DNA from: an uncultured Chitinophaga sp.
GTDB taxonomy: Bacteria; Bacteroidota; Bacteroidia; UKL13-3
Assembly: GCA_964603255.1 (NCBI GenBank)
Contig: CAZRVA010000001.1
Coordinates: 1,177-65,176, forward strand
Length of the DNA stretch: 64,000 nt
Direction: 5' to 3'
Position 1 is the first letter of the stretch; each line of letters starts with the position of its first letter. Under the pieces are notes generated by a model. It saw only the letters and a program-made list of their open reading frames with translations, ran no database searches and was not told the origin of the DNA. The position numbers and the translations under genes are program-made. This document shows, in pieces, positions 822 to 16,395 of this stretch.

Positions 822-3800
822 TTAGTTCTTAATCATTTTTATTACAACTTCTTGTCCATCAACAGCTATTTTAACAAAATAAATACCGGTGTTTAGGTTG
901 CTCATTTCGTTGATAGAAATGGTGTTGCTACCTTCTGCAACCTGGTAATTGTTAGATAATATGCTGCGACCACTGAAGTCGAATACAGTTACGTTAGCAG
1001 TAGATGCTTTAGTTGCATTTACACTAACAGTAACATCAGCGTTAAAAGGATTTGGATAAGCGCTGATTGAATTGGTATTGTTCATTTCGTTTAACAATAC
1101 AACCACATTGCTTAAGCTTGATTTACCATCAAAGTCTACTTGTTTTAAACGGTAGTATACTTTGCTAACGGCATTATTAAATACGCCATTATCAATAAAG
1201 GTATAAGTTGATTTTATATTTGTATTTCCTGCACCTTTAACAAAACCAATTGTTTCGAAAGTACGTCCGTCAAAACTACGTTGCACATCAAAGCCTTTGT
1301 TGTTAGATTCTGATGCAGTAACCCAGGTTAAACGAGCATCGTTAACTTTTTTAGCAGCTGTAAAACTTGCCCATTTAACCGGAACCGGAGTATTTAATAC
1401 CTCATCAGCACCCATATAAGTAAATGCTAAACGGGTATTTCCGTCAATATCAACCGGAACTTCAATTCTTACCAAGCAAGAATATGTTGGATTGCCAACA
1501 GAAGCACCTGTTAAATGTAAATCAGACAACGAAACAAACGATGTTGAATCTGACACTGAATTTACATCTTGAACAAGGGCTGCTTTCCATGCGGTTAATG
1601 AAGTAACATCAGCACCCAAGAACCCAAATACAGCTTGCGTGCCAAATGCAAAATAATTGTTGTAATTGATATCAACTGTGGCTGGATTCGTTAATGCTGA
1701 AGCAATAGCGTATGCTTTAGCCGAGGCACTTAGGTTATTTTCAATACCATTAATAAAAATGTTGTTACGTGCTAATAGATTGGTTACACCTGATGCTACG
1801 TAAACAGCAGCCGACTGGGTAGCTGAAGATCTATTCGCATTTCCTCTTAAAGAAACTGTATTGTGTAACAATGAGATGTTTCCAGTGCTACCCAAAATAC
1901 GAAGCCCAACTATTCCATCACCGGCTAAACTTGTCCATCCATCACCCAAAATATTAGAAATCATGTTATTTGAAACTATGATATTGCTTATGGCTAATCC
2001 AGTATTAATATCAATTCCTTTACCCCCATATCCGCCAGTTCCGGCATAAATAATACTATCAACAACATTTCTGGTAATTGTTGCATTTTCAACGCCTGTT
2101 TGCACAAGAATACCAGTTGTTCCATCGCCCATTGCAGTGTTTGTTGAGTTGATATTTTTAATGTAGTTATTGCTGATCATTAAGCCATTGGTTTGCATTA
2201 CATAAATACCCGCATTTGTTACTGTATTTAGATTAACCACATTACCAATAGTGTTATTACTAATAACCATCCCTTTGTTTTTATTTAGAGATGTTCCTGA
2301 TGCATAAATTGCATAACCAACTTTTGTGAACTCATTATTCTCTATCACTAAACTATCGTTATCAGCACCTGTACCCGAACTTGATATGGTAGCTCCTGCA
2401 GCATAAATACCAAATGAAGTTGCTACTGCTGATGTATCACCTTGTATTTTTGTGTTTTTAACTTTGATACCTATTGCACCAGCAGTATTGCCCATACTTT
2501 GTACCCAAATAACTGCGGTGTTACCAATACGTGATGTATTGGTGATAGTCAAATCACGTGTATTTCCGGTTGTGGCTGCTCCATCAATAGTAATGTAATC
2601 TGCACCATTAAATTTAAAGATAGACTGATTGCTTGCACCAGAAATAGAAACTGTGTTGTTTAAAGTTGGCTTAATGGTAACCGGATTGTTAATACCCATA
2701 CCACCAAATACATCAAATGCAATTGGGAATGTTTCCGTTGCTGCTGTGTATGAGGCATCAGTTAACTCAAAAGTAACAGGAGCACTTACACCACGTAAAT
2801 TAAGTTGAGAAACCGCTTGGGTTAATGATGTAAAGTTTGGCGAAGTTTGCGATGCTCCAACCAAGTAAGTTCCTGCAAGTGGCGCTCCAATAATTGTAAA
2901 TGAGTTTCTTGAGGTAGGAACAGAAGTAATGTTAGCAACACTACTTGCCACAAATCCTATTGATGGGTTGGCAGAAACATTAGCTGTTGTAATCAAATCC
3001 TGCGCTGTTACAAAATATTCAATAACATCACCTGTTGCAACTGTACCTGTTAAGTATAATAACGAATAATCAATTGTAAAACTAAAAGGTGATGAAGTGT
3101 TGGTTGCCTCCACATATTTCCAACCATTAAAACTTGATGAGTTATCTGTTGGATAGTTACCCAATGCATTTGCATCAGTAGTACGTTTGAAATAAATACG
3201 AGGTTTGTTTGTTGTAACGTTTACACCACTTACGTCTGTAATAGCTGCAAACGCAGATAGCACAGGATTACTGGTTGAACTTGTATTTGCAATTTGCGTG
3301 TAAGTAATAGTAGGACCCGCAAGGTCTACTGTATTTTCGTAAGCACCAATAGTAGGTGCGGTTGCCGAACGAATTGCATTGTTAAAGTCTCTATCAATTG
3401 TGCTTATTATCGCGGCAAACCCACCAACAGTTCCTAACCCTGCAATTAAAGTTGTATCATTAACAAAAGTAGGATTTACAGCAATAGAATTTGCATTGGC
3501 ACCTGTACTTGTTTGAAGTCCGGTTAATGTATTTACATCAGTTCCGTTTGCATTCATTAAAATACCAAATGTACCACCACCAAAAAAATTGTTATTATTA
3601 AAAGTTAACCCAGGAATTGTTCCACTTACGGTAGTCCAATAGGCATAGTGTTTTGATCCGGCTAAACCTGTTGTATTGTTACTAAAAATATTATTTCTAA
3701 TATCAGATCCTGTGTAGGTTCCTGGTAAAATAAGTAATGGTGCTGAAGAGCTTGCTGAAGAACCATTTTGAGGAGCACCAAATAAATGAATGGTGTTGTA

Positions 3801-6800
3801 ATAAACTTTTAAGTTAGTTGCACCTGAAGCTAAACGAATTCCAAATGCGTTCCAAGTTGTGGATGTAGTACTATAGTTCGCTGTTTTAATATCATAAATA
3901 AGGTTATTATAAATCGAATCGTTATCTACACCAGTTCCTGATGCAATGTTTATTCCATAGGCTCCATAACCACTAGCGCTTGTAGAGTATATACCTTTAA
4001 TGACATTTCTCTTAATGGTACTATTGGTTAACCCTGATGCAATCCAAATACCAGCATTATTAATAGCACCACTTTGCTTTATGTTAAATATAATATTGTT
4101 TTCAATCAAAACTGAATCGGCATTTAACAAATACACGCCATTATTACGTGTAAAAAATGCGTTACTATCTGTTCCTATTCTGTTGTTTCTTAATGATACT
4201 TGTTTAACCTTATTAGCAACAGAACTACCACTAATAACAACACCATAGTCTGTGTTGTAAACATCATTGTTTTCAATTAGTAAGTTGCCATGACCAATAC
4301 CTCCTGAAGATAAACCTACGGTTGTACCACCCACAAGTATACCGTATGATGCCGCAGTATTGCTACCAGCCTTTACAATTGTATTTTTGAAAATAGTATT
4401 TCGTACACCTTGGTTTAATGCTGTACCTTGAAACATAACCACCGCACCTGTTGTGTTGGTGTTTTGTATTACTAAGTTTTGGCTTGTTGTATTATTGTTA
4501 GAACCATCAAAAATATAGTTTGATGCCCCATTAGCAAAACGTAAAATGGTAGTAGCATTTGAACCAGAAATTGTAGTGGAGACACCCGTATTTGGTTTTA
4601 TTGTTATAGTAAAGTTTGGATTTGTAGTTGGGAAAGCCACGAAGTTAATCGGGAAAGTTTCTGCTGTTGAAACATAGTCAGCATCCAGCAATAGCGTGAT
4701 ATTACCCTGAACTTGCTTACCCGATATATCTGCTAAAGCCGCGGTAATATTTGTGTAGTTTGGTGCTGTTTTAGTTGCACCAACTAAAAAGTTACCTGAT
4801 ATTGGTGTGATAACCTCACCTAATGCATAAAATCCTTCCAACAAGGTTGAAGAGGTAATTTTGTTGGTAAGCAATGTATTACCAATTGGTCCTGCACTTA
4901 CCGGTGCATAAACACCTGTCAAAGTTGAAGAGTAAGCAATACGATTTACACCAACCAAGTTAGCCGAAGTGAATCTTGCATAAGTACTATCCAAGTTGGC
5001 TTGTCCATTAGGAACTGTAATATTCCAATAACCATTTGTATATAGCGAATTTAACTGGCCTGCAGCAGGTGTACCTCCTGTGCTTGTGTTAAATCTTTCC
5101 ACTAAAACATCAACAGTACCATTTGCATTTGTACCAGTATTTACCAACTCTATTAGTCCATATGTACTTCCTTTACCTACGGGAAATGCTATTGTTCCGG
5201 CAGTTGTTAAAGAGGCTGGTATGGTACGTTGCATTGGGCCATCTACAAAGCTTGTTGTGCCACCTATAGTTGCGGTTCCAGTTGCTGCTATACGTAGAAG
5301 ATTTGTTGATGTAGTAATTAATTTACCGGCTGTCATTGTTAAAGTACCAGTAACATCTAGAGCACCACCAGCCAGTGTAACATGATTGGTATCAGCAATG
5401 GTTAAATTGGTAATCGTTCTTGAAGCTGGAATTTCTATACCAGTTGTGCGCATTGCACCTTCTTGTTGATAAATTAGTGAGTATGCTCCAGTTCCTAAAT
5501 TAAACGTAGGTGCAACATCAAAGATGCCTACGTTACCGTTTGTGTACCCAGCAACACCCACCTGTACTATTACAGCTTGTGTTGAGCCATTACCTAATGA
5601 AATATTATTGCTGTTTATAAGCTGAGTTGGGCTGAAAAAATTAACGCGATAAGTAGTAACAGATTTGTTAAACGTCACACCACCAACTGTATTTTGGTTA
5701 CTGATAGACTGATGTGTATCAGTTCCTGTGCCGCTATATGTTTGTGCTGAATTGCGGGCAAAAACCAAATTACTTCCAGCAACTGTTCCATCAACAGTTC
5801 CATTATTTGTAACAGTTGTGCCAGAGTTAAACAACACAAATCCATTTAAACTAAGTGTGCTTCCATTAGATACAGTTAAGCTGTTCCATACATTAAGCTG
5901 TGCACCCAATACTGCAGTTTTAGCATTGGTTGTATTATCAACCAATAAACTAGGCACATTACCTCTGATATTAAAATTGAAGTTTGTTGCAGTTGATGCG
6001 TTACCTATTTGTAAAGTACCTCCTGTTAAACCGTTAACTGGAGCTACGTTATAATCTTGTTGTGTTGTGCCTGTGCTTCGCTGCACCAATGTTAAGGTAC
6101 CTCCCGTCCAATTTATAATTGATGCAGCACTTGTAATACCAAATGATGGTGATGCAGATGTTGAATTACCAACAGTCGCCACATTAATATTACCACTACT
6201 AAAGTTAAAGTTAACTACGTTTCCTGTATTAATTCTTGCAGCAGCATTAACTGTTCCACCATCAACTGTAAATGTAGCGCCTGTACCAAAACCTAATACT
6301 TGTGCTGCTGTTTGAGAAACATTAAAAATACCTGCAGTAACTTGCAACAAACCATTAACTGTAGGACTGCCATTTGTTGATGTTACAATAAAATTAGGAT
6401 TATTAAGATGTAAACCGCCCGTCAAAGGAATGGTGTATGCGGCAGTTGTATATATTGGGTTTGATTGATTAAAAGAACCATTTATTTTTAACACACCAGC
6501 GGTGTGTGTTGAAATCAAACCAACTGTATTGGCACCTTGAACTGTAAATGGAGCTTCAATTTCTATCAATGGTCTGTTAACAGATACGGCACCTTTATTT
6601 AAAACAACAGTTCTAAAATCTAATAAAGTTGGCGTACCCGAAATTTTTGCGTTTAAAGTTCCAAAGAAATTTACCGTTACTCCTGCACTGGTATTAAAAT
6701 CTGCAGTACCATCAACAACTAGAGACCCCTCTCCCAAACCAGTAGCAGCTGATCCTCCTAACCTTAAATTATGCGTAGTTAATGTTCCTGTTCCTGCATC

Positions 6801-8105
6801 AAAAACGCCACCTGTAGCAACATAAACATTTCCATTAACAGTTAGTGTAGCGGCAGTTGTTGCATCAAAATTCAATACACCTGATGTTCCTGTTCCTACC
6901 CTAACGGCATGACATAACGGAGTTAAGCCATCAATGGTAACCGTAGCACCATCAACAATTACAACCGAATCAGATGCAGTTGGTACAATACCATTTGCCC
7001 AAGTCGATGTGCTTGTCCAATTACCACCGGTTGAAGTTGAGAGCAAGGCTGAAGCGTTGGTAGTAGAAACGGTTGTAGTTGCAAACTTAGAAATATCAGA
7101 CTCTGATGCAGCTGTTACCCTGAAGGTATAAGCTTTGCTTGGAAACAATCCTGTTACATTATATGTAGTTGCGTTTGATGGTAATGTTCCAATTGTTGAG
7201 TAAGTTAAACCACCATCATTAGATTGTTCTACAGTATAATAAGTTTCATTGCTTGCAGCATCAGTCCAATTTAAAGTTAGTGTTGATGCGGTAATTGCTG
7301 TAGCAGTTAAACCAGTTGGTGCAGCTGTTACAGCCGGAGATGGTGTAAAAGTAAGTACCCTTCTACTGCCTTGGGCAGTAGAATGTAATCCATTTATAAC
7401 TCCAGCTGCGAAAGTATTGGTAACAAGCGTTGCTGAAGCAGCTGAAGTTGGCGGTACGGCCACTGTTACTGTTTGTGCAGTTGAAACTGTGTTACTAGAT
7501 GCCAGGAATATTGCTCTGGTAACTGATGAACCCGCCTGCATTGGACCATACAAATATTGTATCGTACCATTTTCATACAACCAAACCTGCATATCTGCAG
7601 CTGGGTTTGAAACACCCCATGGCACAGCAAAACCAGGAAACTCTAATTTAAAAATTCGATTTGGTGCTGTACCTGTTACTACAAATCGAACTGCATCATT
7701 TGTTGCGTTATCACCTGACATTGGTGCTAAAGTAACCGTATTGGCTGCTAATGCTGAAACATTGCCTGTTGCAATTGCAGTTTCTGAAGAATTACGGTGC
7801 AAACGCATTTGGCCATTAGAGTTAGCACTAAAATGCGTGTAATTGACACCCATGAACGTGAATGGAAAACCTATAGGAAATAGGCCTGTGTTACGATCAT
7901 CGTTGTAACCTACAACCATATTACCCGTACCAGCAGTTGTTGTGGCACCAGTCATCGGATCAAGTGAACCTGTTGTGCTCGTTGAAAACACATAGTTACT
8001 GATGTTTTGAGCTTGTACGAGACTGAGTCCCGCAAACAAAGCTGTTAATACAATTTTCCGGCCATAGGAAAAAAGATTACTCATTTTTAGTAATGGATTC
8101 TTCAT
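822..8105 (-). CDS. Giant secreted cell-surface protein (~2427 aa) with parallel beta-helix-like repeats, FN3-like segments and a type-A T9SS C-terminal sorting domain; putative adhesin
   Basis: The ORF-track frame 822..8177 begins at a TTG; the first ATG with a signal peptide (MKNPLLKMSNLFSYGRKIVLTALFAGLSLVQA|QNISNY) is at 8105. The protein has many NNxIxxN/GxxxxN beta-helix-type repeats and is Thr/Asn/Gly-rich. The C-terminus ...YPNPFNADVTVSV...GIYFVKIAVDGQEVVIKMIKN is typical of a Por secretion (T9SS) CTD. The N- and C-terminal ~150-200 aa are paralogous to those of the 8542..15159 protein. Confidence 0.85.
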   Translation of the reverse strand: MKNPLLKMSNLFSYGRKIVLTALFAGLSLVQAQNISNYVFSTSTTGSLDPMTGATTTAGTGNMVVGYNDDRNTGLFPIGFPFTFMGVNYTHFSANSNGQMRLHRNSSETAIATGNVSALAANTVTLAPMSGDNATNDAVRFVVTGTAPNRIFKLEFPGFAVPWGVSNPAADMQVWLYENGTIQYLYGPMQAGSSVTRAIFLASSNTVSTAQTVTVAVPPTSAASATLVTNTFAAGVINGLHSTAQGSRRVLTFTPSPAVTAAPTGLTATAITASTLTLNWTDAASNETYYTVEQSNDGGLTYSTIGTLPSNATTYNVTGLFPSKAYTFRVTAASESDISKFATTTVSTTNASALLSTSTGGNWTSTSTWANGIVPTASDSVVIVDGATVTIDGLTPLCHAVRVGTGTSGVLNFDATTAATLTVNGNVYVATGGVFDAGTGTLTTHNLRLGGSAATGLGEGSLVVDGTADFNTSAGVTVNFFGTLNAKISGTPTLLDFRTVVLNKGAVSVNRPLIEIEAPFTVQGANTVGLISTHTAGVLKINGSFNQSNPIYTTAAYTIPLTGGLHLNNPNFIVTSTNGSPTVNGLLQVTAGIFNVSQTAAQVLGFGTGATFTVDGGTVNAAARINTGNVVNFNFSSGNINVATVGNSTSASPSFGITSAASIINWTGGTLTLVQRSTGTTQQDYNVAPVNGLTGGTLQIGNASTATNFNFNIRGNVPSLLVDNTTNAKTAVLGAQLNVWNSLTVSNGSTLSLNGFVLFNSGTTVTNNGTVDGTVAGSNLVFARNSAQTYSGTGTDTHQSISNQNTVGGVTFNKSVTTYRVNFFSPTQLINSNNISLGNGSTQAVIVQVGVAGYTNGNVGIFDVAPTFNLGTGAYSLIYQQEGAMRTTGIEIPASRTITNLTIADTNHVTLAGGALDVTGTLTMTAGKLITTSTNLLRIAATGTATIGGTTSFVDGPMQRTIPASLTTAGTIAFPVGKGSTYGLIELVNTGTNANGTVDVLVERFNTSTGGTPAAGQLNSLYTNGYWNITVPNGQANLDSTYARFTSANLVGVNRIAYSSTLTGVYAPVSAGPIGNTLLTNKITSSTLLEGFYALGEVITPISGNFLVGATKTAPNYTNITAALADISGKQVQGNITLLLDADYVSTAETFPINFVAFPTTNPNFTITIKPNTGVSTTISGSNATTILRFANGASNYIFDGSNNNTTSQNLVIQNTNTTGAVVMFQGTALNQGVRNTIFKNTIVKAGSNTAASYGILVGGTTVGLSSGGIGHGNLLIENNDVYNTDYGVVISGSSVANKVKQVSLRNNRIGTDSNAFFTRNNGVYLLNADSVLIENNIIFNIKQSGAINNAGIWIASGLTNSTIKRNVIKGIYSTSASGYGAYGINIASGTGVDNDSIYNNLIYDIKTANYSTTSTTWNAFGIRLASGATNLKVYYNTIHLFGAPQNGSSASSSAPLLILPGTYTGSDIRNNIFSNNTTGLAGSKHYAYWTTVSGTIPGLTFNNNNFFGGGTFGILMNANGTDVNTLTGLQTSTGANANSIAVNPTFVNDTTLIAGLGTVGGFAAIISTIDRDFNNAIRSATAPTIGAYENTVDLAGPTITYTQIANTSSTSNPVLSAFAAITDVSGVNVTTNKPRIYFKRTTDANALGNYPTDNSSSFNGWKYVEATNTSSPFSFTIDYSLLYLTGTVATGDVIEYFVTAQDLITTANVSANPSIGFVASSVANITSVPTSRNSFTIIGAPLAGTYLVGASQTSPNFTSLTQAVSQLNLRGVSAPVTFELTDASYTAATETFPIAFDVFGGMGINNPVTIKPTLNNTVSISGASNQSIFKFNGADYITIDGAATTGNTRDLTITNTSRIGNTAVIWVQSMGNTAGAIGIKVKNTKIQGDTSAVATSFGIYAAGATISSSGTGADNDSLVIENNEFTKVGYAIYASGTSLNKNKGMVISNNTIGNVVNLNTVTNAGIYVMQTNGLMISNNYIKNINSTNTAMGDGTTGILVQTGVENATITRNVVDSIIYAGTGGYGGKGIDINTGLAISNIIVSNNMISNILGDGWTSLAGDGIVGLRILGSTGNISLLHNTVSLRGNANRSSATQSAAVYVASGVTNLLARNNIFINGIENNLSASAKAYAIASALTNPATVDINYNNYFAFGTQAVFGFLGADVTSLTAWKAALVQDVNSVSDSTSFVSLSDLHLTGASVGNPTYSCLVRIEVPVDIDGNTRLAFTYMGADEVLNTPVPVKWASFTAAKKVNDARLTWVTASESNNKGFDVQRSFDGRTFETIGFVKGAGNTNIKSTYTFIDNGVFNNAVSKVYYRLKQVDFDGKSSLSNVVVLLNEMNNTNSISAYPNPFNADVTVSVNATKASTANVTVFDFSGRSILSNNYQVAEGSNTISINEMSNLNTGIYFVKIAVDGQEVVIKMIKN

Positions 8106-8187
8106 AATTATAAAATTTAAAATGCAAAAGCCATTTACGGATAGGTAAATGACATCAAACTGATTGTAATAAATCAACGGATAACTG

Positions 8188-8292
8188 CTATTCGTTCCAG
8201 CAGGTAGTATTATGAGCCTTTCGAACTCCTCTGTAAACAGAAGGAGCTATACTTAATACCGCACCGGCAGCAAGTAAATCACTATCCGACAT
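8188..8292 (-). CDS. Small conserved upstream ORF (34 aa, MSDSDLLAAGAVLSIAPSVYRGVRKAHNTTCWNE) 82 nt upstream of the giant T9SS gene
   Basis: Hand translation of the reverse strand gives an ATG..TAG ORF. Its C-terminal 18 aa match the ORF at 15265..15402 (14 of 18 identical), and several of the nucleotide differences are synonymous (tct/tcc, gct/gcc). It is below the 60-aa cutoff of the ORF track. Confidence 0.4.
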   Translation of the reverse strand: MSDSDLLAAGAVLSIAPSVYRGVRKAHNTTCWNE

Positions 8293-8487
8293 GGTTGTCA
8301 AGATATGGATGCTGCCATCAGAATTGTGCAAATATTTTTTAAGTAGGCTATTCATTTGGTTTTAACGCGTTCGAAATTACATTTCATAAACGTAAATACA
8401 AGACGCCTTATTACATAATTCTGGTTGCACCTTTTTCAAAAATTATGTAAAAAATAAATATTGTATTGCTAATCAATTTTTTAAAAA

Positions 8488-8519
8488 CAAAAAAGCCTCG
8501 GGAATCACCCGAGGCTTTT
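8488..8519 (-). terminator. Rho-independent terminator of the 8542..15159 giant gene
   Basis: The A-run at 8488-8494 is followed by the perfect 8-bp stem gcctcggg-aatca-cccgaggc at 8495-8515 and then ttttat. The sequence is almost identical to the terminator at 761-787. Confidence 0.8.
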
Positions 8520-8541
8520 ATCAATAATTAAGAATAATTAA

Positions 8542-11500
8542 CTATTGTTTGATAAGTTTACTTATTTGTGTTGCACCAGAAGCATTTACTTTAATAAAGT
8601 ATACCCCTTGTGATAAATTTGATAAACCATCAACAATTAATGTTTGATTATTTTGATTTACCATTTGCTCTTTGGTTGTTATCAATCTTCCACTAATATC
8701 CAACACTTCAATTTTAACCATTCCAGCTTTTACATTTTGAAGTTCAATAGTCACCTTATCAGTAAATGGATTAGGATAAGTTACAACCGTTACATTTTCA
8801 ATTTCATTGTTATCAACTACAACAATTTGGCTGTAAGTATACTTACCATCATTATCCATTTGTTTTAAGCGGTAGTATAATTTACTTACTCCTGTTGTTA
8901 CAAATGCATTTGCATCTTCAAATCTGTAGTTGTTGGTTACGCTTGAATTACCCATTCCTTTCACAAAACCTACATATTCAAATGCGTTTCCGTCAATACT
9001 ACGCTCTACATTGAAACCACGGTTGTTTACTTCGCTTGCTGTTGTCCAGCTCACTAATACATCATCGTTTACTTTGGTTGCTTTCAAGCTAACTAATTTA
9101 ACCGGTGTAGTGGTGGTGTTGCTGCTGATAGCACCTGCAAAGCTAATGTGCATGTACTTACCGTTGTATTCGTATACATCAAATGTATAACCTGTTAATT
9201 GTGTTAAACCTGTTACGTTTACACTTGTACCATTACCCATGTAAACAATAAAGTTACCGGTACCTGTTGTATTAGCAGAACCGAATACTGCACTTGCACC
9301 ATATAATGCATTATTGGTTGGCGCAACAGCTAAGGTTGATGATAAACGGGCTACAACCATGCGGCCTTGACCATTACCTGCGGTAAAGTTTACTGTTGCA
9401 CTGGTTGCACTTGGTGTAACTGTTACATTGCTGGCTGCTGTGGTTGGCGTTGTTACATTTACTACCTCAATATCATCTATTGCCCATCCTTCATCTGTAA
9501 CATAGGTATCAGAAATAAATCTGAATCTAAAACGAACATTAGCCTGTCCTGCTGCGCCCACTAATCTGAACGCACTTTGAATCCATCCGTTGGTTTGACT
9601 TGCATAAACGCTGCCAGAACCAACATCATTTGAGAAGTAAGGAGGGATTAATATACCGCCATTAGGAACGTTGTTCGTATTATCGTTGTACCATGCATAG
9701 CTATTTGTAGTATTGAAGTTACCACCCGTACCCACTAGACTATCAACACGAGTCCAGAAACCGCCATTGATCGATCGTTCAACAATTAAACCGTCCCACT
9801 CTGCTTCACTCTTGAACTTATGATAGAAACGAACAATTGGATCTGTTGTACTTGACGTAAAATCAAATTGAGGAGAAACCAATGATGCATCATGATCAAT
9901 GTCATAGCTACCTATTAGCTTCGTAGCCCATGCTTTGGTTCCACTTCTTGCTCCATTTAGATAAGTCTTGTTTGGTGTTCCCAACGTCCAATTGTTATTG
10001 GTAACTATACCAATAACCCAATTTATACTAGTATTAGTTGATGTTAATGCTGACGACCAGCCTGTATTTACGTTACCCTCAAAATCCTGAGTATAAGGTA
10101 ACGTGCTTATTATAGGAGAGGTTGTAAAACTATCTTCCACACTATATCCAGTACCTATGCTATTACTTGCATAAGCTCTGAAATAATATTTTGTTGAATG
10201 TGTAAGTGATGAAGCGTTTATATTGTAGATGCCTGATAGAACTGCAGGAGAAGTTGGCACATCTACTACACCTGTTCCAAACAAGGTTGGATTCGGTGTC
10301 GTTGAGTACACCACACCACTTGCTATTACTGTAGAACCTCCATCAGAAGTAATATTACCACCTAGGGTTGCTGTTGTGGTGCTGATTGCTAGAGGAGTTA
10401 ATTTTAGTACAGATGGAACAACCGCTTGGGCATTAGTTGTAAAAGTACTGTCTGCACCATAAGATGTTCCTAATGCGTTAACTGCATAAGCTCTGTAATA
10501 ATAAGTCGTTGCTAAGGTCAATCCAGTTATGTTACGCAAGAAACTACCAGATGTTACCAATGGATTGGTTGCTGAATCAATTACACCGGCTGTACCTCTT
10601 GTTGGATTTGGAGAAGTTGACAATACGATACCGCTTGCAGTTACAGCGTTTCCACCGTTATTTAAAATCGTACCTGATAATGTAACTGTGCTAGTGGTAA
10701 TACCAGTCTTAGTTCCAGTTGATACAATAGGTGCAGAAGGCGCAAACAACTCAATATCATCTATTGCCCAACCATCATTCTCTACGCTACCATCTGTTAC
10801 AAAACGGAATCGTATTCTAACGTTGTTCTGTCCGGCTGTTCCCGGCAACACAATACTTGATGTAATCCATCCACTTGCTGCGGTTGAATATGCGTTACTA
10901 CTATTACCCCAAGTATTACCCTGAGCGGTAACATTGTACCATGCAGTTCCGTTAGTGGTATTGAAATTTGTTCCCGTACCAACAAAATTCTCAACTTTTG
11001 TCCATGCTCCACCATTAATTGATAACTCAAGCATACCGCCATCGCAGCATGATTCTGTAATAAACTTATGCTTAAATCTAAGTATTGGATTACTTGTCAT
11101 TGCGCTTAAATCTAACTGAGGTGATGTGATAGCTGCATTATGACTAGTTGAGTAATTACCAGATAACTTAGTTACCATCGCATTTGGTGCTGAAAACGCT
11201 GATGACAAGAATGTTTTTGTCGGTGCTCCAATAACCCAATCATTAAGGGTTCCTGTAACAGGGGCTGATGTCCATCCGCTATTCATTGTGGTATCAAAGT
11301 TTTGGAAGTATGGCAAAGCACTAACTACAGGTGCTGTTGTAAAGCTATCCTGAGCGCTATAAGCGGTTCCGATACTATTGGTTGCGTAAGCTCGGTAGTA
11401 ATACTTGGTTGAATGAACTAAACCAGCCGTTGTTATTGAGAATGTTCCTAAAGTTACAACAGGGGTTGTTGTTGAATCTACAACTCCGGTTCCAAACAGC

Positions 11501-14500
11501 GTTGGGTTAGGAGTAGTTGAGTAAACGATTCCACTTGCTGTTACAGCAGAACCACCATCACTGGTAATGTTTCCGCCAACAGTTGCACCGTAAGCCTGAA
11601 CGTTTGTAGCTGATGTTCTTAGTACTGTAGGTGCAACCGCAGAAGCATTGGTTGTGAATGTACTATCTGCTCCATAACTAGTTCCCATGCCATTTACAGC
11701 ATATGCACGATAATAGTAGGTTGTTGCAACTGATAAATTAGCCACGTTTAAGGTAAACTGACCACCGCTTACCAATGGATTAGTTGCTGAATCAATAACA
11801 CCAAAACCACCGCGAACAGGTGAAGGTGAAGTACTTATAACAATACCACTTGCTGTAATAGTAGCGTTACCATTTCCGGTGATATTACCAGCTAAAGTAG
11901 CCGCACTTGTTGTAACATTGGCAAAAGTACCTGTAACAACTGTTGGGGTAGTTGGTGGAAACACCTCGATATTATCAACTGCCCAACCCTCTTGTGTACC
12001 AAAGAAAGTGTATGTAGTTGATGCAAAACGCAATCTAAAGCGTACGTTTGACTGACCAGCAGCACCTGTTAACCTTGTGGTGGTTTGCACCCATCCGTTT
12101 ACTTGTGATGAATATCCATTTGATGAGCCTGAGAAATTAGCACCGATAGTTGGTGTCCAGAATCCATTTGATGCGTTATTGTACCATGTTGTACTGGTAG
12201 CTGTATTGAAATTTGTCCCTGTGCCCACTAGGTTGTCCAATTGAGTCCAAGAGTTACCACCATTTGTTGAAATCTCAACAATAGCGCCATCTACACCTGA
12301 AACAGCAGAAATTTTATGACGGAATCTTAAGATTGGATCTGCAGTTTGGTTGGTAAAATCGAACTGAGGAGACAGAATATAAGCATCAACAGCATTACTG
12401 TAATTACCTGTTAATTTTGTAACCCATGCCTTTGGTGCCGAGTATGCACCATTAATAAACGTTTTTGCTGGTGTACCTAACTGCCAATCGTTAACACCCA
12501 AACCTAACGAAGAAGAAGTCCAAGGAGTGTAAGAAGAATCGAAATTCTCGTTGTATGGTAAAGTTGTAACAATAGGTTGTGTAAGGAAACTATCTAATAC
12601 ACTGTATCCGGTACCCACACTATTGGTTGCATATGCGCGATAATAGTATTTTGTTGCAGGTGTCAAGCCAGCTGGTGTAATAGTATATTGACCAATGGTA
12701 ACCACTGGTGTTGTTGTAGAATCCACAACCCCAACACCAGATAACAATGGATTGTTGGTTGTTGAATATACAAAACCACTTGCAGTTACAGTAGATCCAC
12801 CATCAGAGGTGATGTTAGCTCTTAAACCGGCTGTTGTTGTATTTACATTTATTGCGTCAAGACGGACAACCGTAGGAACTACACTTACAGCATTTGTCGT
12901 GAAAATACTGTCTACACCGTAACTTGTACCAACTGCATTTACAGCATATGCACGATAATAATATGTAGTTGCCAAAGTAAGGTTAGCAGCATTTAGATTA
13001 AATGCACCGTTAATCACAACCGGGCTTGTTGCCGTGTCTATTACGCCAATACCACCTCTTACAGGTGATGGAGAAGTAGAAAGTACAAAACCACTTGCTG
13101 TTATTGTACTACCTCCATTATCAGTAATTGTTCCTGAGAGATTAGCTAGATTGGTTGTAATATTTGAACTTGTGCCGGTAACAACTGTTGGTGCACTAGG
13201 GGCAAATACTTCGATGTTATCAATTGCCCATCCCTCTTCAACTGCGCTACCATCAGTAACAAAGCGGAAGCGAATTTTTACATTTGATTGACCGGCAGCT
13301 CCAGGTAGAGCAATGCTACTGGTAATCCAACCATTTACTGCACTCGAATAAGCAGTGCTTTGATTACCCCATGAGTTACCTTGAGCTCCTACGTTATACC
13401 ATGCAGTTCCGTTTACCGTGTTGAAGTTTCCTCCAGCTCCTAAAGTGTTTTCTACTTTTGTCCAGGCACCACCATTTATTGAGATTTCTAAGATACCACC
13501 ATCACAGCAAGATTCTGTTCTAAATTTATGTTTAAATCTCAAAATCGGATTTGCTGTCATTCCCGTAAAGTCAAATTGTGGCGATACAAGAGCAGCATTG
13601 TGGTTATCGTTGTAATTTGTTGTTAATCCGGTAATCCAAGCATTTGGAGCAGAGAAAGCAGCAGATATGTTTGCCTTAGCTGGAGTTCCTAATACCCAAT
13701 TATTAAATGTACCACCAACTACATTTGATGTCCAACCAGTATTTACAGCGGTATCAAAATTTTGTTGATATGGTAATGCATTTACAACCGGAGCAGTTGT
13801 AAAGGTTCCTTGTGTACCATAAGCAGTACCAACACTGTTGGTGGCGTATGCACGGAAATAATAAGTTGTTGATGGTGTGAGACCAAGCAGGTTAAAATTA
13901 TAGATGCCACTGGTAAGCAATGGAGTTGTTGTTGAATCGATAACGCCTAAACCGCCAACTGCAGGATTGGCACTTGTACTAAATACCACACCACTTGCAG
14001 TTATTGCAGCACCACCATCTAATGTGATGTTTAGACCAACGTTGGCATTATAAGCTCCTACTGCAGTTGCATTTATTGTGGCAACAGTAGGTACAGATGC
14101 TGATAAATTGGTTGTGAAAGTACTGTCGGCACCGTAAGTAGTGCCTAGTGAATTTATTGCATAGGCACGATAATGGTAGGTAGTACCAACATTTAACCCT
14201 GTAAATAATCTTGTGAAATTACCAGATCCAACTGTTGGACTTGTGACAGAATCAATAACACCAGTTCCACCAATTGTTGGATTGGCTGATGTACCAACCA
14301 CTATACCGCTTGTTGTTACAGCAGGAAATGCGCCAGGAGCAATAAATCCTGCTAAACTGGCTTGATTTGTAGTAATACCAGAGGCTGATCCAGTTGCAAC
14401 AACCGGAGCACCTGGTACTGGAGGATTGAACTGATAAATTTGACCATTAGCCGGTTTAACACCAATTGATGTTGTTTCAGTTGTTGAACTGGCCGTAGGT

Positions 14501-15159
14501 GCATTGGTAGTATTATTTAAAGATAAAAAGTTACCCGAACCAGTAGCAACACCAGAGATACCTATTGATGCTGATCCAAATCCTAATGGAGTAGACTCTT
14601 GTCTGTAAATAAACTGAATTGCTCCAGAGTTTTTAAATAATTTTACCTGAAAGGAAATTACCGGACCACCTGTCCAATTCCAATCAACATTAAGCCATTC
14701 TGCAGTAAAAACACTGTCAGTTCCACTGCTAATGGCTTCACTTTTGTAGGTAAAAGTAGTTCCTGTACCGTTGTGGTCATCCCAAAGAGGCGACAAAACC
14801 GGACGAGCACCCACAAGTCCATTGCTTACATTGTTGGTCCAGGTTGTTTGGGTCATTGATCCTACCAAACTTAACCAACCATTTGTACATGCTGCAGCTG
14901 ATGTGTAGGTTCCACCAGCATAATTGAATGCAAATCCTATTGGAATATTATTCCAATAGCCATCATCGGTGTTACCACCACTTAGTGTGGCTGGCGTGGT
15001 TCCTCCAGTAATTGGCGTGAATGTTCCTGAGGTTGCAGAGAACACGTAATTAGAAACTTGTTGGGCATGCGTAATAAATACGCTTGCACCAAACAAAACT
15101 GCCAGGAAAGCCAATTTTAGGCTTCCCCACCTTCGTTTTAGTGTAGTGTTTGTTTTCAT
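8542..15159 (-). CDS. Giant secreted cell-surface protein (2205 aa) with four tandem modules of FN3-like pairs plus MAM/galactose-binding-like domains and a type-A T9SS C-terminal sorting domain; putative adhesin
   Basis: ATG at 15159 with signal peptide MKTNTTLKRRWGSLKLAFLAVLFGASVFITHA|QQVSNY. There are four repeats of ...PILRFKHKF.[TS]ESCCDGG.LE.SINGG.WTKVEN...GWAIDNIEVF... separated by FN3-like YYYRAYA.N..GTSYG units. The C-terminus TYPNPFTDKVTIEL...GVYFIKVNASGATQISKLIKQ is a T9SS CTD. The termini are paralogous to the 822..8105 protein. Confidence 0.88.
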   Translation of the reverse strand: MKTNTTLKRRWGSLKLAFLAVLFGASVFITHAQQVSNYVFSATSGTFTPITGGTTPATLSGGNTDDGYWNNIPIGFAFNYAGGTYTSAAACTNGWLSLVGSMTQTTWTNNVSNGLVGARPVLSPLWDDHNGTGTTFTYKSEAISSGTDSVFTAEWLNVDWNWTGGPVISFQVKLFKNSGAIQFIYRQESTPLGFGSASIGISGVATGSGNFLSLNNTTNAPTASSTTETTSIGVKPANGQIYQFNPPVPGAPVVATGSASGITTNQASLAGFIAPGAFPAVTTSGIVVGTSANPTIGGTGVIDSVTSPTVGSGNFTRLFTGLNVGTTYHYRAYAINSLGTTYGADSTFTTNLSASVPTVATINATAVGAYNANVGLNITLDGGAAITASGVVFSTSANPAVGGLGVIDSTTTPLLTSGIYNFNLLGLTPSTTYYFRAYATNSVGTAYGTQGTFTTAPVVNALPYQQNFDTAVNTGWTSNVVGGTFNNWVLGTPAKANISAAFSAPNAWITGLTTNYNDNHNAALVSPQFDFTGMTANPILRFKHKFRTESCCDGGILEISINGGAWTKVENTLGAGGNFNTVNGTAWYNVGAQGNSWGNQSTAYSSAVNGWITSSIALPGAAGQSNVKIRFRFVTDGSAVEEGWAIDNIEVFAPSAPTVVTGTSSNITTNLANLSGTITDNGGSTITASGFVLSTSPSPVRGGIGVIDTATSPVVINGAFNLNAANLTLATTYYYRAYAVNAVGTSYGVDSIFTTNAVSVVPTVVRLDAINVNTTTAGLRANITSDGGSTVTASGFVYSTTNNPLLSGVGVVDSTTTPVVTIGQYTITPAGLTPATKYYYRAYATNSVGTGYSVLDSFLTQPIVTTLPYNENFDSSYTPWTSSSLGLGVNDWQLGTPAKTFINGAYSAPKAWVTKLTGNYSNAVDAYILSPQFDFTNQTADPILRFRHKISAVSGVDGAIVEISTNGGNSWTQLDNLVGTGTNFNTATSTTWYNNASNGFWTPTIGANFSGSSNGYSSQVNGWVQTTTRLTGAAGQSNVRFRLRFASTTYTFFGTQEGWAVDNIEVFPPTTPTVVTGTFANVTTSAATLAGNITGNGNATITASGIVISTSPSPVRGGFGVIDSATNPLVSGGQFTLNVANLSVATTYYYRAYAVNGMGTSYGADSTFTTNASAVAPTVLRTSATNVQAYGATVGGNITSDGGSAVTASGIVYSTTPNPTLFGTGVVDSTTTPVVTLGTFSITTAGLVHSTKYYYRAYATNSIGTAYSAQDSFTTAPVVSALPYFQNFDTTMNSGWTSAPVTGTLNDWVIGAPTKTFLSSAFSAPNAMVTKLSGNYSTSHNAAITSPQLDLSAMTSNPILRFKHKFITESCCDGGMLELSINGGAWTKVENFVGTGTNFNTTNGTAWYNVTAQGNTWGNSSNAYSTAASGWITSSIVLPGTAGQNNVRIRFRFVTDGSVENDGWAIDDIELFAPSAPIVSTGTKTGITTSTVTLSGTILNNGGNAVTASGIVLSTSPNPTRGTAGVIDSATNPLVTSGSFLRNITGLTLATTYYYRAYAVNALGTSYGADSTFTTNAQAVVPSVLKLTPLAISTTTATLGGNITSDGGSTVIASGVVYSTTPNPTLFGTGVVDVPTSPAVLSGIYNINASSLTHSTKYYFRAYASNSIGTGYSVEDSFTTSPIISTLPYTQDFEGNVNTGWSSALTSTNTSINWVIGIVTNNNWTLGTPNKTYLNGARSGTKAWATKLIGSYDIDHDASLVSPQFDFTSSTTDPIVRFYHKFKSEAEWDGLIVERSINGGFWTRVDSLVGTGGNFNTTNSYAWYNDNTNNVPNGGILIPPYFSNDVGSGSVYASQTNGWIQSAFRLVGAAGQANVRFRFRFISDTYVTDEGWAIDDIEVVNVTTPTTAASNVTVTPSATSATVNFTAGNGQGRMVVARLSSTLAVAPTNNALYGASAVFGSANTTGTGNFIVYMGNGTSVNVTGLTQLTGYTFDVYEYNGKYMHISFAGAISSNTTTTPVKLVSLKATKVNDDVLVSWTTASEVNNRGFNVERSIDGNAFEYVGFVKGMGNSSVTNNYRFEDANAFVTTGVSKLYYRLKQMDNDGKYTYSQIVVVDNNEIENVTVVTYPNPFTDKVTIELQNVKAGMVKIEVLDISGRLITTKEQMVNQNNQTLIVDGLSNLSQGVYFIKVNASGATQISKLIKQ
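9400..14350 (-). repeat. Intragenic tandem coding repeats (higher-order repeat: two ~2.46-kb units, each containing two diverged ~1.3-kb sub-repeats)
   Basis: The protein-level repeats listed above are mirrored by homologous antisense ORF-track fragments offset by ~2.46 kb (10229..10462 vs 12695..12922; 10934..11119 vs 13418..13615). Boundaries are approximate. Confidence 0.6.
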
Positions 15160-15264
15160 ATGTTTTTAATTTTTGTTGTTTTTAAAATAAACAGGCAATA
15201 GAATCACCAAGGGCTTTAGTAATCTGAAATTGGTGTTTTAAAAATTTTGATTAGCTACCAGATG

Positions 15265-15402
15265 CTATTCGTTCCAAAGGGTAGTATTACAGGCAGGTTT
15301 TATTCCTCTGTATAAGGAAGGTTTGGCACCAAAGCATACCTTTGATGCCGCAATCGATGTTGAGTAAAGATTATTCCGTGGAGTAGTTTTTTTGTTAGGC
15401 AT
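15265..15402 (-). CDS. Small conserved upstream ORF (45 aa, MPNKKTTPRNNLYSTSIAASKVCFGAKPSLYRGIKPACNTTLWNE) 105 nt upstream of the second giant T9SS gene
   Basis: Hand translation of the reverse strand gives an ATG..TAG ORF. Its C-terminus PSLYRGIKPACNTTLWNE* is paralogous to PSVYRGVRKAHNTTCWNE* at 8188..8292. Confidence 0.4.
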   Translation of the reverse strand: MPNKKTTPRNNLYSTSIAASKVCFGAKPSLYRGIKPACNTTLWNE

Positions 15403-15510
15403 ATCAACCAAATAATGGAATAACGAATATGCGGAACCTATTCGAAAGAAAACACTTAATTAATCTTAAATCTTAGTGCCCAAATACAAACTAATCCAAA
15501 TAAAATCGAA

Positions 15511-16395
15511 TTAAAGTTGATTTGTGTTGAATGATTTACCAAGTATGATTGGGAGGTTTAAATCTTGATGCCCTGCAGGGAAATTAAATATTACAGGATA
15601 ATTATATTCTTTTATTGTCTCTGATATTATCTGCTCAGCATTTAATCCAAAAGGAACTAAATTATCCTTCATATCACTCATTCCACCTACAATCAGGCCT
15701 GCAAGATTGCTTAACTTACCTGCACGTTTTAATGCTTGCATCATCCGATCAACATGATAGAGGTATTCGTCTAAATCTTCTAGAAATAATATCTTACCAT
15801 TGGTATCAATATCACTTGCAGAGCCAAGTAAACTGTAAATAACAGATAAGTTCCCTCCTACAATTTCTGCTGTTACTTCTCCTGGTTTATTAAGATCGTT
15901 TTGTGTAATTGGGTATGTTATTTCATCATCACCCATTAAAACAGATTTAAGCGCCAATACACTCTGCATATTTATGTTGTGCGCTTGCATATTGATGGGC
16001 ATTGTAGCGTGCAGCGTGCACCAATTGCTGTTAGCATGAACATGATTGTGTAACACCGTAATATCACTGTAACCAATCAGCCATTTAGGATATTTATCTA
16101 AATAAGAGAAATCAATTTTATCAATAATACGCACTGTTCCATAACCACCGCGTGCAAAAATTATAGCCTTAATATCTGGGGTTTGTAAATAGCTGTTTAA
16201 AACAAATGCCCTTGTATCATCATCTCCTGCAAATTGATTTTTAACTGAAAATAAATCAGGATGTAAAATCACCTTCAAACCCCAGCTTTCAAATATATCT
16301 ATGGCATGTTGCAGCTCCTCTAAACTTATTTTTCTGGCAGATGCAGCTATGGCAATTTGATCACCCGGTTTTAATTTTGGTGGTATGTTACGCAT
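15511..16395 (-). CDS. ldcA: LD-carboxypeptidase (peptidase S66, muramoyltetrapeptide carboxypeptidase-like)
   Basis: 294 aa. Family-typical N-terminal region GDQIAIAASARKIS..., a central Ser-containing GYSDITVLH motif, and the expected overall length and architecture. Confidence 0.75.
   Translation of the reverse strand: MRNIPPKLKPGDQIAIAASARKISLEELQHAIDIFESWGLKVILHPDLFSVKNQFAGDDDTRAFVLNSYLQTPDIKAIIFARGGYGTVRIIDKIDFSYLDKYPKWLIGYSDITVLHNHVHANSNWCTLHATMPINMQAHNINMQSVLALKSVLMGDDEITYPITQNDLNKPGEVTAEIVGGNLSVIYSLLGSASDIDTNGKILFLEDLDEYLYHVDRMMQALKRAGKLSNLAGLIVGGMSDMKDNLVPFGLNAEQIISETIKEYNYPVIFNFPAGHQDLNLPIILGKSFNTNQL

Follow-up and report, generated by a model that had tools for sequence, protein, structure and literature searches.

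A conserved small upstream ORF that may encode a leader peptide precedes giant T9SS cargo genes in a freshwater Bacteroidota clade

The window, by which we mean the entire 64-kb stretch of DNA analyzed here, carries on its minus strand two giant genes, each of which has a small ORF directly upstream of it (Table 1). Both giant proteins combine a T9SS C-terminal sorting domain with fn3, MAM/Reelin-like or beta-helix modules; the Por_Secre_tail model PF18962 matches their C termini at 57.7 and 47.9 bits, and signal-peptide-like N termini are visible. As judged from the C-terminal sorting domain and the signal-peptide-like N terminus, the downstream giant genes are T9SS cargo genes, and the N-terminal 185 aa of the two products are 34% identical. 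The small ORF in front of giant gene 2, hereafter copy 2 of the upstream ORF (uORF), reads ATG CCT AAC ... TGG AAC GAA TAG from 15402 to 15265 of the minus strand, so that the sequence bears out the first-pass annotation, which had described a 45-aa ORF whose stop lies 105 nt before the giant-gene ATG at 15159. The translations also confirm its statement that a C-terminal motif is common to this ORF and the one ahead of the other giant gene. The latter, copy 1, had been placed at 8188..8292; its existence and its motif stand, but its extent has to be revised, as the ATG at 8355 is the likeliest start. That start, which gives 55 rather than 34 aa, is preferred because the ORF is called so in public data and because a TAnnTTCG box lies 16 nt 5′ of it. 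The stop codon of copy 1 is separated by 82 nt from the ATG of giant gene 1.

Table 1. Features of the two uORF and giant-gene units, with positions in the window
Feature	Position	Strand	Description
Giant T9SS cargo gene 1	822..8105	minus	2427 aa; Por_Secre_tail; 7.3 kb
Terminator-like hairpin between uORF 1 and giant gene 1	8130..8153	minus	GTCATTTAC-N6-GTAAATGGC then TTTTGCATTTT; 9 pairs and T tract
uORF copy 1	8188..8355	minus	55 aa from ATG 8355, 34 aa from ATG 8292; ends in APSVYRGVRKAHNTTCWNE and stop
Box of copy 1	8372..8379	minus	TAATTTCG; putative -7-like element, 16 nt 5′ of ATG 8355
Intrinsic terminator of giant gene 2	8491..8519	minus	Strong; 12 pairs, 7 G-C, T tract
Giant T9SS cargo gene 2	8542..15159	minus	2205 aa; MAM/Reelin-like and fn3 repeats, Por_Secre_tail; 6.6 kb
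Spacer from uORF 2 to giant gene 2	15160..15264	minus	105 nt; unconserved; more C than G
Hairpin in copy-2 spacer	15202..15224	minus	Weak, G-U-rich, then T-rich tract
uORF copy 2	15265..15402	minus	45 codons and TAG; translation MPNKKTTPRNNLYSTSIAASKVCFGAKPSLYRGIKPACNTTLWNE and stop
Stop codon of copy 2	15267..15265	minus	TAG
Conserved C-terminal module of copy 2	15265..15324	minus	KPSLYRGIKPACNTTLWNE and stop; under strong purifying selection (codon table, dN/dS)
Variable N-terminal half of copy 2	15325..15402	minus	Unconserved sequence, frame open
Invariant box of copy 2	15421..15430	minus	ATATTCGTTA; 16-19 nt 5′ of uORF ATG; candidate -7-like element (TAnnTTCG) or helix 5′ arm
AT-rich palindromic element	15455..15467	minus	AAGATTAATTAAG; 24 nt 5′ of box; 5 lineages (alignment)

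Near-identical copies of the giant proteins and of the adjoining LD-carboxypeptidase exist in public assemblies, and on a 472-kb JGI contig (L001, L002) both small ORFs are present and annotated as 55- and 46-aa genes. Homologs were sought by a profile search of 5.8 billion proteins and then by an exhaustive HMMER search over 1.84 billion cluster representatives, among which there are only seven real family clusters, all of proteins of 37-61 aa. One further significant match (P0041, 218 aa) is a repetitive protein and was dismissed as spurious, and the motif was never found as the end of a larger protein in the exhaustive search. Orthologs of copy 2 were found at L002, L003, L004-6, L007, L008, L018/19 and L020/21 and those of copy 1 at L001, L022 and L014. 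The recovered loci represent eight copy-2-type lineages and three to four copy-1-type sequences, in each of which the ORF is intact and stop-terminated, and at 12 loci it precedes a giant T9SS gene in the same orientation, with a spacer of 82-197 nt. Every member with readable context has the same gene order (AMP-ligase, DUF2196, Kup, RecQ, nucleotidyl transferase, LD-carboxypeptidase, small ORF, giant gene), and the contigs of the relatives mostly end inside the giant gene. Absence or interruption of the ORF in relatives that retain the giant gene, which the first-pass annotation had named as evidence against its functional importance, was looked for, and the syntenic loci all keep the ORF intact; one extra giant paralog in a relative has no such ORF.

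Scans of DNA for codon patterns added L008, from the GTDB representative "Bacteroidetes bacterium RE-16jun15-135", and the copy-1-type locus L014, which shares its assembly with L003. A degenerate codon pattern that required Y-R-G had no match in GTDB species genomes because Y-R-G is not universal in the family, and a relaxed pattern gave one true relative (L008) together with one chance match. The metagenome scan yielded two true loci, L010, on the same contig as L003, and L014; five of the six other matches were set aside as chance on their sequence context, and the match L013, which has NTTIWNE and a stop at the start of a contig with a GC of 0.44, is ambiguous. A 66-aa "readthrough" uORF (ENA protein P0035; L022 1683..1883) is an artifact in which TAG was translated as Gln; the contig DNA has TAG. 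The peptide has no match in Pfam or NCBIfam and none among PDB chains at E ≤ 10, and a literature search for motif strings found no paper. The uORF family is clearly unreported, and it is limited to one narrow, uncultured freshwater Bacteroidota clade.

The conservation of the uORF is concentrated at its end. Its 19 final residues follow the consensus [KRAM]-P-[SA]-x-[YLF]-[RV]-G-x-[KR]-[PKF]-[ATQ]-[CHY]-N-T-T-[LCM]-W-N-E-stop, the main form of which, in about nine lineages, is [KR]P[SA]x[YLF]RGx[KR]Px[CHY]NTT[LCM]WNE-stop. Seven residues are invariant despite many synonymous changes, and the conservation extends over two old paralogs. Arg is encoded by AGA, AGG, CGA or CGC, Gly by GGA, GGC, GGT or GGG, Glu by GAA or GAG and the stop by TAG or TAA, and the Asn-Thr-Thr codons occur as AAT ACT ACC, AAT ACC ACA, AAC ACT ACA and AAC ACA ACA. 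Over the last 19 codons, a comparison of all pairs of nine sequences gives counts of 195 synonymous against 213 non-synonymous differences in frame, as opposed to 48/384 and 36/375 in the shifted frames, and the variable columns are distributed 11/9/17 over the three codon positions. Between the window and L002, dN is 0.08 and dS is 1.28 in this segment (dN/dS 0.06), as compared with a dN of 0.28 and a dS of 0.65 (dN/dS about 0.43) in the preceding 25 aligned codons. Because the DNA of the motif varies at synonymous sites while the amino acids are kept, the constraint is of the protein-coding kind and does not reflect a DNA or RNA motif.

This conclusion bears on the nucleotide block that the first-pass annotation had noticed in both copies. 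The block is real: TACAGAGGA-N14-TAATACTACC-N3-TGGAACGAATAGCA has exactly two sites in the window, with 0 mismatches, and no match is expected from 100 shuffles. The idea that its part of ~30 nt at the stop codon is a protein-binding site or an RNA structure finds no support and is unlikely to be right, since orthologs alter the third codon positions and keep the amino acids, for example by changing AAT ACT ACC into AAC ACA ACA and TAG into TAA. Three promoter readings within the ORF were rejected on the same variation at synonymous sites, namely a sigma-54 reading of TGGAACGAATAGCA (TGG..GC with a spacing of 8, not 10), an ECF reading of TGGAACGAATAGCA (GGAAC ... CGT) and a sigma-70-like TTTACA-N17-CATAAT inside copy 1. 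The accompanying claim that the recurring small ORF is a functional unit rather than a product of chance fares better, as the ORF is intact in all recovered lineages and the synonymous signature appears in the ORF frame only. As this case illustrates, what looks like conserved DNA in two paralogs can reflect constraint on the protein alone.

From one lineage to another, the N-terminal halves are too divergent to align and differ in sequence, length and hydrophobicity, although MP.K recurs as a start among the homologs and several of them have a hydrophobic stretch just before the motif. No consistent signal peptide or transmembrane segment was seen across the homologs, the N termini of which were judged by eye. 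The frame nevertheless stays open there: in nine lineages, codons -45 to -20 contain 26 and 23 stops in the other two frames but 0 in this one, and open frames of 49-67 codons exist at all 12 loci. The openness of a frame that cannot be aligned points to selection for the length of the chain, not for the identity of its N terminus. We consider it highly probable, from these patterns of codon change, that the 45-codon ORF is a real, selected coding sequence, and selection keeps a chain of at least ~37-61 residues and fixes, besides where the stop lies, only the identity of the final 19. The stop itself is TAG (UAG) in seven of the eight lineages; in comparison, the ORFs of at least 150 codons in the window end in TAA 33 times, in TAG five times and in TGA twice. 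Since neighboring A/G third positions flip freely, this preference suggests selection on the weak, RF1-only UAG stop itself. Window ORFs of at least 250 codons have no TGA stop, but the apparent lack vanished at the lower length cut-off, and TGA reassignment left no sign in the window, the ORFs of which are contiguous under table 11.

Upstream of copy 2, an A[TA]ATTCGTT box is invariant in the alignment of all eight copy-2 lineages, at a distance from the ATG of 16-19 nt in seven of them and of 49 nt in L007. This putative promoter box, also written ATATTCGTT, resembles the Bacteroidota -7 promoter element with one change, the consensus of that element being TAnnTTTG. If the box is a -7 element, the uORF would be the first cistron behind a short leader. 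The box of copy 1 is taken as a putative promoter element by analogy, because it has the same geometry. The copy-2 box has a further property: TATTCGTT is the exact reverse complement of AACGAATA (15265..15275), which contains the Asn-Glu-stop codons and lies ~150 nt downstream, and the same complementarity exists in L002, L003, L004, L007, L008, L018 and L020. The duplex energies range from -8 to -13.5 kcal/mol, and in the minimum-free-energy folds of three of the six full leaders the box pairs with AACGAATA and encloses the whole uORF. Extensions of the helix differ by lineage (TTCCA:TGGAA in the window, CACA:TGTG in L008), and the box of L018 has a local perfect partner instead, ATATTCGTTT-AGCTG-AAACGAATAT. 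The pairing does not covary among the copy-2 lineages and is absent from the copy-1 type. It may represent an RNA helix, paired operator half-sites or a coincidence, and the choice hinges on the position of the transcription start. Still farther upstream, between the stop of the LD-carboxypeptidase gene and the promoter-like region of the uORF, lies a tandem 16-nt direct repeat (15480..15511; CCAAATACAAACTAAT / CCAAATAAAATCGAAT on the plus strand), which L002 and L003 keep in part and to which a regulator may bind.

The spacers that separate the uORFs from the giant genes show no conservation of sequence. In the copy-1 type, the terminator-like hairpin is 100% paired in four sequences, in which one AU-to-GC compensatory and three wobble-compatible changes have occurred. 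The spacers of the copy-2 type contain more C than G, and that of the window has an A-rich, G-free stretch before the giant ATG. A hairpin followed by a T tract was found by a relaxed scan in six of 11 spacers, as against 2-18% of shuffles, and a stricter scan flagged a terminator-like site only ahead of gene 1 and none in the L020 and L002 spacers. Folding z-scores range from -0.6 to -3.0 in six of seven spacers; the exception is window copy 2, the spacer of which has a z-score of +0.19 and no hairpin plus T tract site in the relaxed scan. Ahead of each giant ATG, the last ~25 nt are rich in A and C and contain no G, a composition to be expected in Bacteroidota where translation initiates independently. 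Because giant gene 2 ends in a strong intrinsic terminator, uORF 1 forms a transcription unit of its own with giant gene 1. In Rfam, no covariance model reached its gathering score anywhere in the window, and relaxing the cut-off to E ≤ 1 for 8000..15600 brought up no relevant family; a weak match to His_leader, far below threshold, sits on the gene 2 terminator and was discarded.

The uORF shares the evolutionary fate of the gene that it precedes. Nucleotide identity between the window and L002 is 97-100% from the LD-carboxypeptidase gene to the uORF ATG. Within the uORF it falls to 62-78% and within the spacer to about 50%, and the giant gene shows about 75%. The drop at the uORF ATG indicates that the uORF belongs evolutionarily to the fast-evolving giant-gene cassette, with uORF, spacer and giant gene diverging as a single block. 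The boundary at 15402, as seen against L002 10001..12000, is sharp and recombination-like and points to replacement of the whole uORF-adhesin cassette by another allele or to its diversifying evolution. In L018 the uORF is kept before a giant gene (8270..) with a different N terminus, which resembles that of a third giant gene (YSSDAE..MRSQN motif) and not that of window gene 2; leader and giant-gene body thus appear to be shuffled relative to each other. This third T9SS gene, which encodes 2273 aa, is inserted between the two in a close relative (L001 2771..9592 / L002 18012..), and its upstream region, of only 187 nt, contains no small ORF. The JGI start of giant gene 1 (L001 10001..10030) is an annotation artifact: the ATG chosen belongs to the spacer hairpin and lies 10 codons too far upstream. 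The N-terminal 250 aa of giant gene 2 (14410..15159, minus strand; SNYVFS...) match no Pfam model and are 38-53% identical to proteins of other lineages, namely Sphingobacteriales, Kapaibacteria and WOR-3 MAGs. These proteins are listed with lengths of ~190-430 aa, a few as partial sequences, and many of them carry CarboxypepD_reg or Por_Secre_tail. No related uORF was found before these distant homologs in other taxa at the two loci examined.

The locus is best read as one unit in which a conserved-peptide uORF, in other words a putative leader peptide, precedes a giant T9SS gene; the uORF opens this unit, and the conserved stretch ahead of it resembles a promoter. As is usual for leader peptides, the ORF is co-oriented with and directly upstream of a gene, and its conservation is concentrated in the C-terminal ~20 residues. 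The conservation over the length of the exit tunnel, the invariant segment at the stop, the N terminus that is kept in length only and the fixed place before one gene together form the signature by which regulatory nascent peptides are sought, and we think it quite possible, while stopping short of calling it probable, that the uORF encodes a regulatory nascent peptide that stalls the ribosome at its own stop codon in cis and gates the giant gene. The conserved C-terminal segment would act during its synthesis in the exit tunnel and the peptidyl-transferase center, where release at UAG would be slowed or blocked by the nascent peptide, as in TnaC, PepNL and the NSP-stop/NAP-stop peptides. The paused ribosome would then set whether transcription crosses the spacer of 82-197 nt into the giant gene, through intrinsic attenuation where a hairpin and T tract exist or through the access of Rho; both routes are conceivable because many spacers have a hairpin and T tract and those of the copy-2 type contain more C than G. 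Translation in vivo, stalling, the link to transcription and a sensed signal are all steps that we infer.

TnaC, the leader peptide of the Escherichia coli tna operon, is one precedent for such a mechanism. Arrest takes place at its stop codon, and in the spacer of a few hundred nucleotides before the regulated gene, Rho-dependent termination is averted by the stalled ribosome; its motif consists of W12, D16 and P24-stop, its effector is free tryptophan and its target is a catabolic operon. The uORF peptide is likewise a short, putative leader peptide with conserved, spaced residues, Trp among them, in the part that would be embedded in the tunnel. The two motifs are unrelated, however, and for the uORF stalling, an effector and a termination route are all presumed. 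In E. coli, the uORF peptide PepNL, by virtue of its own sequence, keeps the release factor from acting at its stop codon and controls the gene that follows (Ando et al. 2025; PMC11890864), but it is 14 residues long, its UGA stop is read by RF2 and readthrough with Trp-tRNA relieves the arrest, unlike the present family with its 37-61 residues and UAG or UAA stop.

Within the same phylum, uORF peptides with an NSP-stop or NAP-stop motif arrest at termination and require the stop codon (PMC10987492, 2024). These resemble the uORF in being encoded by small unannotated uORFs and in having a variable N terminus and a motif that ends at the stop. They differ in that they end in proline, carry an N-terminal signal or transmembrane segment, precede secA or secDF and report Sec activity (PMC10987492), whereas the present peptides end in W-N-E, have no consistent localization signal and precede T9SS cargo genes; no sequence similarity between the two groups was detected. 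Monitoring substrates of Sec or YidC in that study have their signal more than 30 residues from the motif and sec/yidC genes downstream (PMC10987492), and the uORF does not belong among them, since its N termini are heterogeneous, with hydrophobic stretches that by eye abut the motif, and its downstream gene encodes T9SS cargo. A leader peptide in front of an adhesin locus has a counterpart in Streptococcus gallolyticus, where a leader peptide and a terminator are reported to control adhesin expression from the Pil1 pilus locus by an attenuation-like mechanism (PMC3894217). That arrangement of leader peptide and downstream terminator before a large surface-adhesin locus is similar to ours, but control of Pil1 is reported to depend on the length of the leader, which slippage at repeats alters (phase variation), instead of on a conserved peptide sequence (PMC3894217). 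The organism is Gram-positive, and its adhesin is sortase-dependent.

No similarity or shared motif with TnaC, SecM, MifM, VemP, SpeFL, RAPP/RQH or NSP/NAP-stop peptides was found in Pfam, NCBIfam, PDB at E ≤ 10 or by comparison of motifs, and no homolog has codon runs like those of amino-acid attenuator leaders (trpL, hisL, pheL). A RiPP precursor was considered and rejected, because the neighbors are LD-carboxypeptidase, nucleotidyl transferase, RecQ and Kup, with copy 1 between two giant genes, and because the conservation is reversed, the N terminus being variable and the C terminus conserved in place of a conserved leader and a variable core. The uORF peptide belongs to no described arrest-peptide family, and a regulatory role is what we propose. 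A bolder version, in which NTTxWNE-UAG represents a new class of arrest peptide, free of proline and RAPP, that blocks release by RF1 and couples a cell signal, such as a metabolite or the state of the secretion/gliding apparatus, to transcription of the giant adhesin gene, seems to us rather unlikely.

Several observations sit uneasily with stalling in cis. WNE-stop is unlike known arrest motifs, lacking a C-terminal proline and a RAPP-like sequence; copy 2 of the window has the least convincing spacer structure, with its positive z-score and no site; the strict scan flags a terminator-like site upstream of gene 1 only; the A-rich, G-free initiation regions of the giant genes could be served by an unrecognized promoter in the spacer; the third giant paralog of the relative works without such an ORF; and no plausible sensed signal can be named. 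The N-terminal conservation, that is, the MP.K start and the dN/dS of 0.43, fits a stable protein as well, and the evidence of coding selection would be explained equally well by a small stand-alone protein or peptide that is co-transcribed with the giant gene and acts in trans, its C-terminal 19 residues serving as a short binding motif. Such a product might bind or regulate the giant adhesin, or the export of the adhesin, from within the cytoplasm, or it might be a signaling peptide; that the N-terminal part is not fully neutral, that a hydrophobic stretch lies ahead of the motif in several homologs and that each paralog is retained beside its own giant gene would all suit such a protein. 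We regard it as a serious rival, yet as rather unlikely, because the N-terminal half turns over completely in sequence, length and hydrophobicity, because conservation covers only ~19 residues and stops exactly at the stop codon, and because a consistent signal peptide or transmembrane segment is missing. Moreover, no modifying, export or partner genes are near, the upstream neighbors being housekeeping LD-carboxypeptidase and nucleotidyl transferase, and the kept UAG stop would have no obvious role.

Translation of the uORF might also matter per se, with the peptide conservation being secondary, if a ribosome loaded at the 5′ end couples with RNA polymerase, shields the very long transcript from Rho or opens the spacer structure. 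The frame that stays open across an unconserved N-terminal half, the great length of the downstream genes (6.6-7.3 kb) and the excess of C over G in copy-2 spacers are in line with this explanation, but it leaves unexplained the dN/dS of 0.06 over the last 19 codons, the seven residues that stay invariant through many synonymous changes and the conservation in two old paralogs, and we judge it improbable. Even less probable, to a degree that makes it a marginal option, is a DNA or RNA element, such as an operator, promoter or RNA structure, in which the ORF is incidental. An exact 27-nt stretch common to both window copies and the reverse complementarity of AACGAATA to the upstream box, paired in three of six leader folds, would be natural in such an element; orthologs, however, vary the third codon positions, and for Arg also the first, with the amino acids kept and with a TAA stop and GAG for Glu allowed, the shifted frames have no synonymous excess, Rfam gives no match at the gathering threshold and none of relevance at E ≤ 1, and the box complementarity lacks covariation and is missing from the copy-1 type. 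That the ORF arose by chance or is what remains of a larger, decaying gene deserves, finally, practically no credence: nothing except the small size and the lack of annotation would favor it, and it is contradicted by purifying selection in about nine lineages and two paralogs and by the exhaustive HMMER search, in which the motif occurs solely in 37-61-aa proteins and never ends a larger one.

Little is known about the regulation of giant T9SS adhesin genes, and Bacteroidota, a phylum without Shine-Dalgarno initiation, lack many classical cis-regulatory devices. Although the reach of the present finding is limited by the confinement of the family to one narrow, uncultured freshwater clade, a uORF with a conserved peptide before giant adhesin genes offers a concrete candidate for a regulatory element, with a testable motif of 19 residues. 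If stalling proves true, a proline-free termination-arrest motif would be added to the short list of such motifs, and nascent-chain sensing would be tied to surface adhesins. If the arrest-class reading should hold as well, the uORF peptide would be the first reported nascent-peptide sensor for T9SS cargo and one of the few in a phylum that initiates translation without Shine-Dalgarno sequences.
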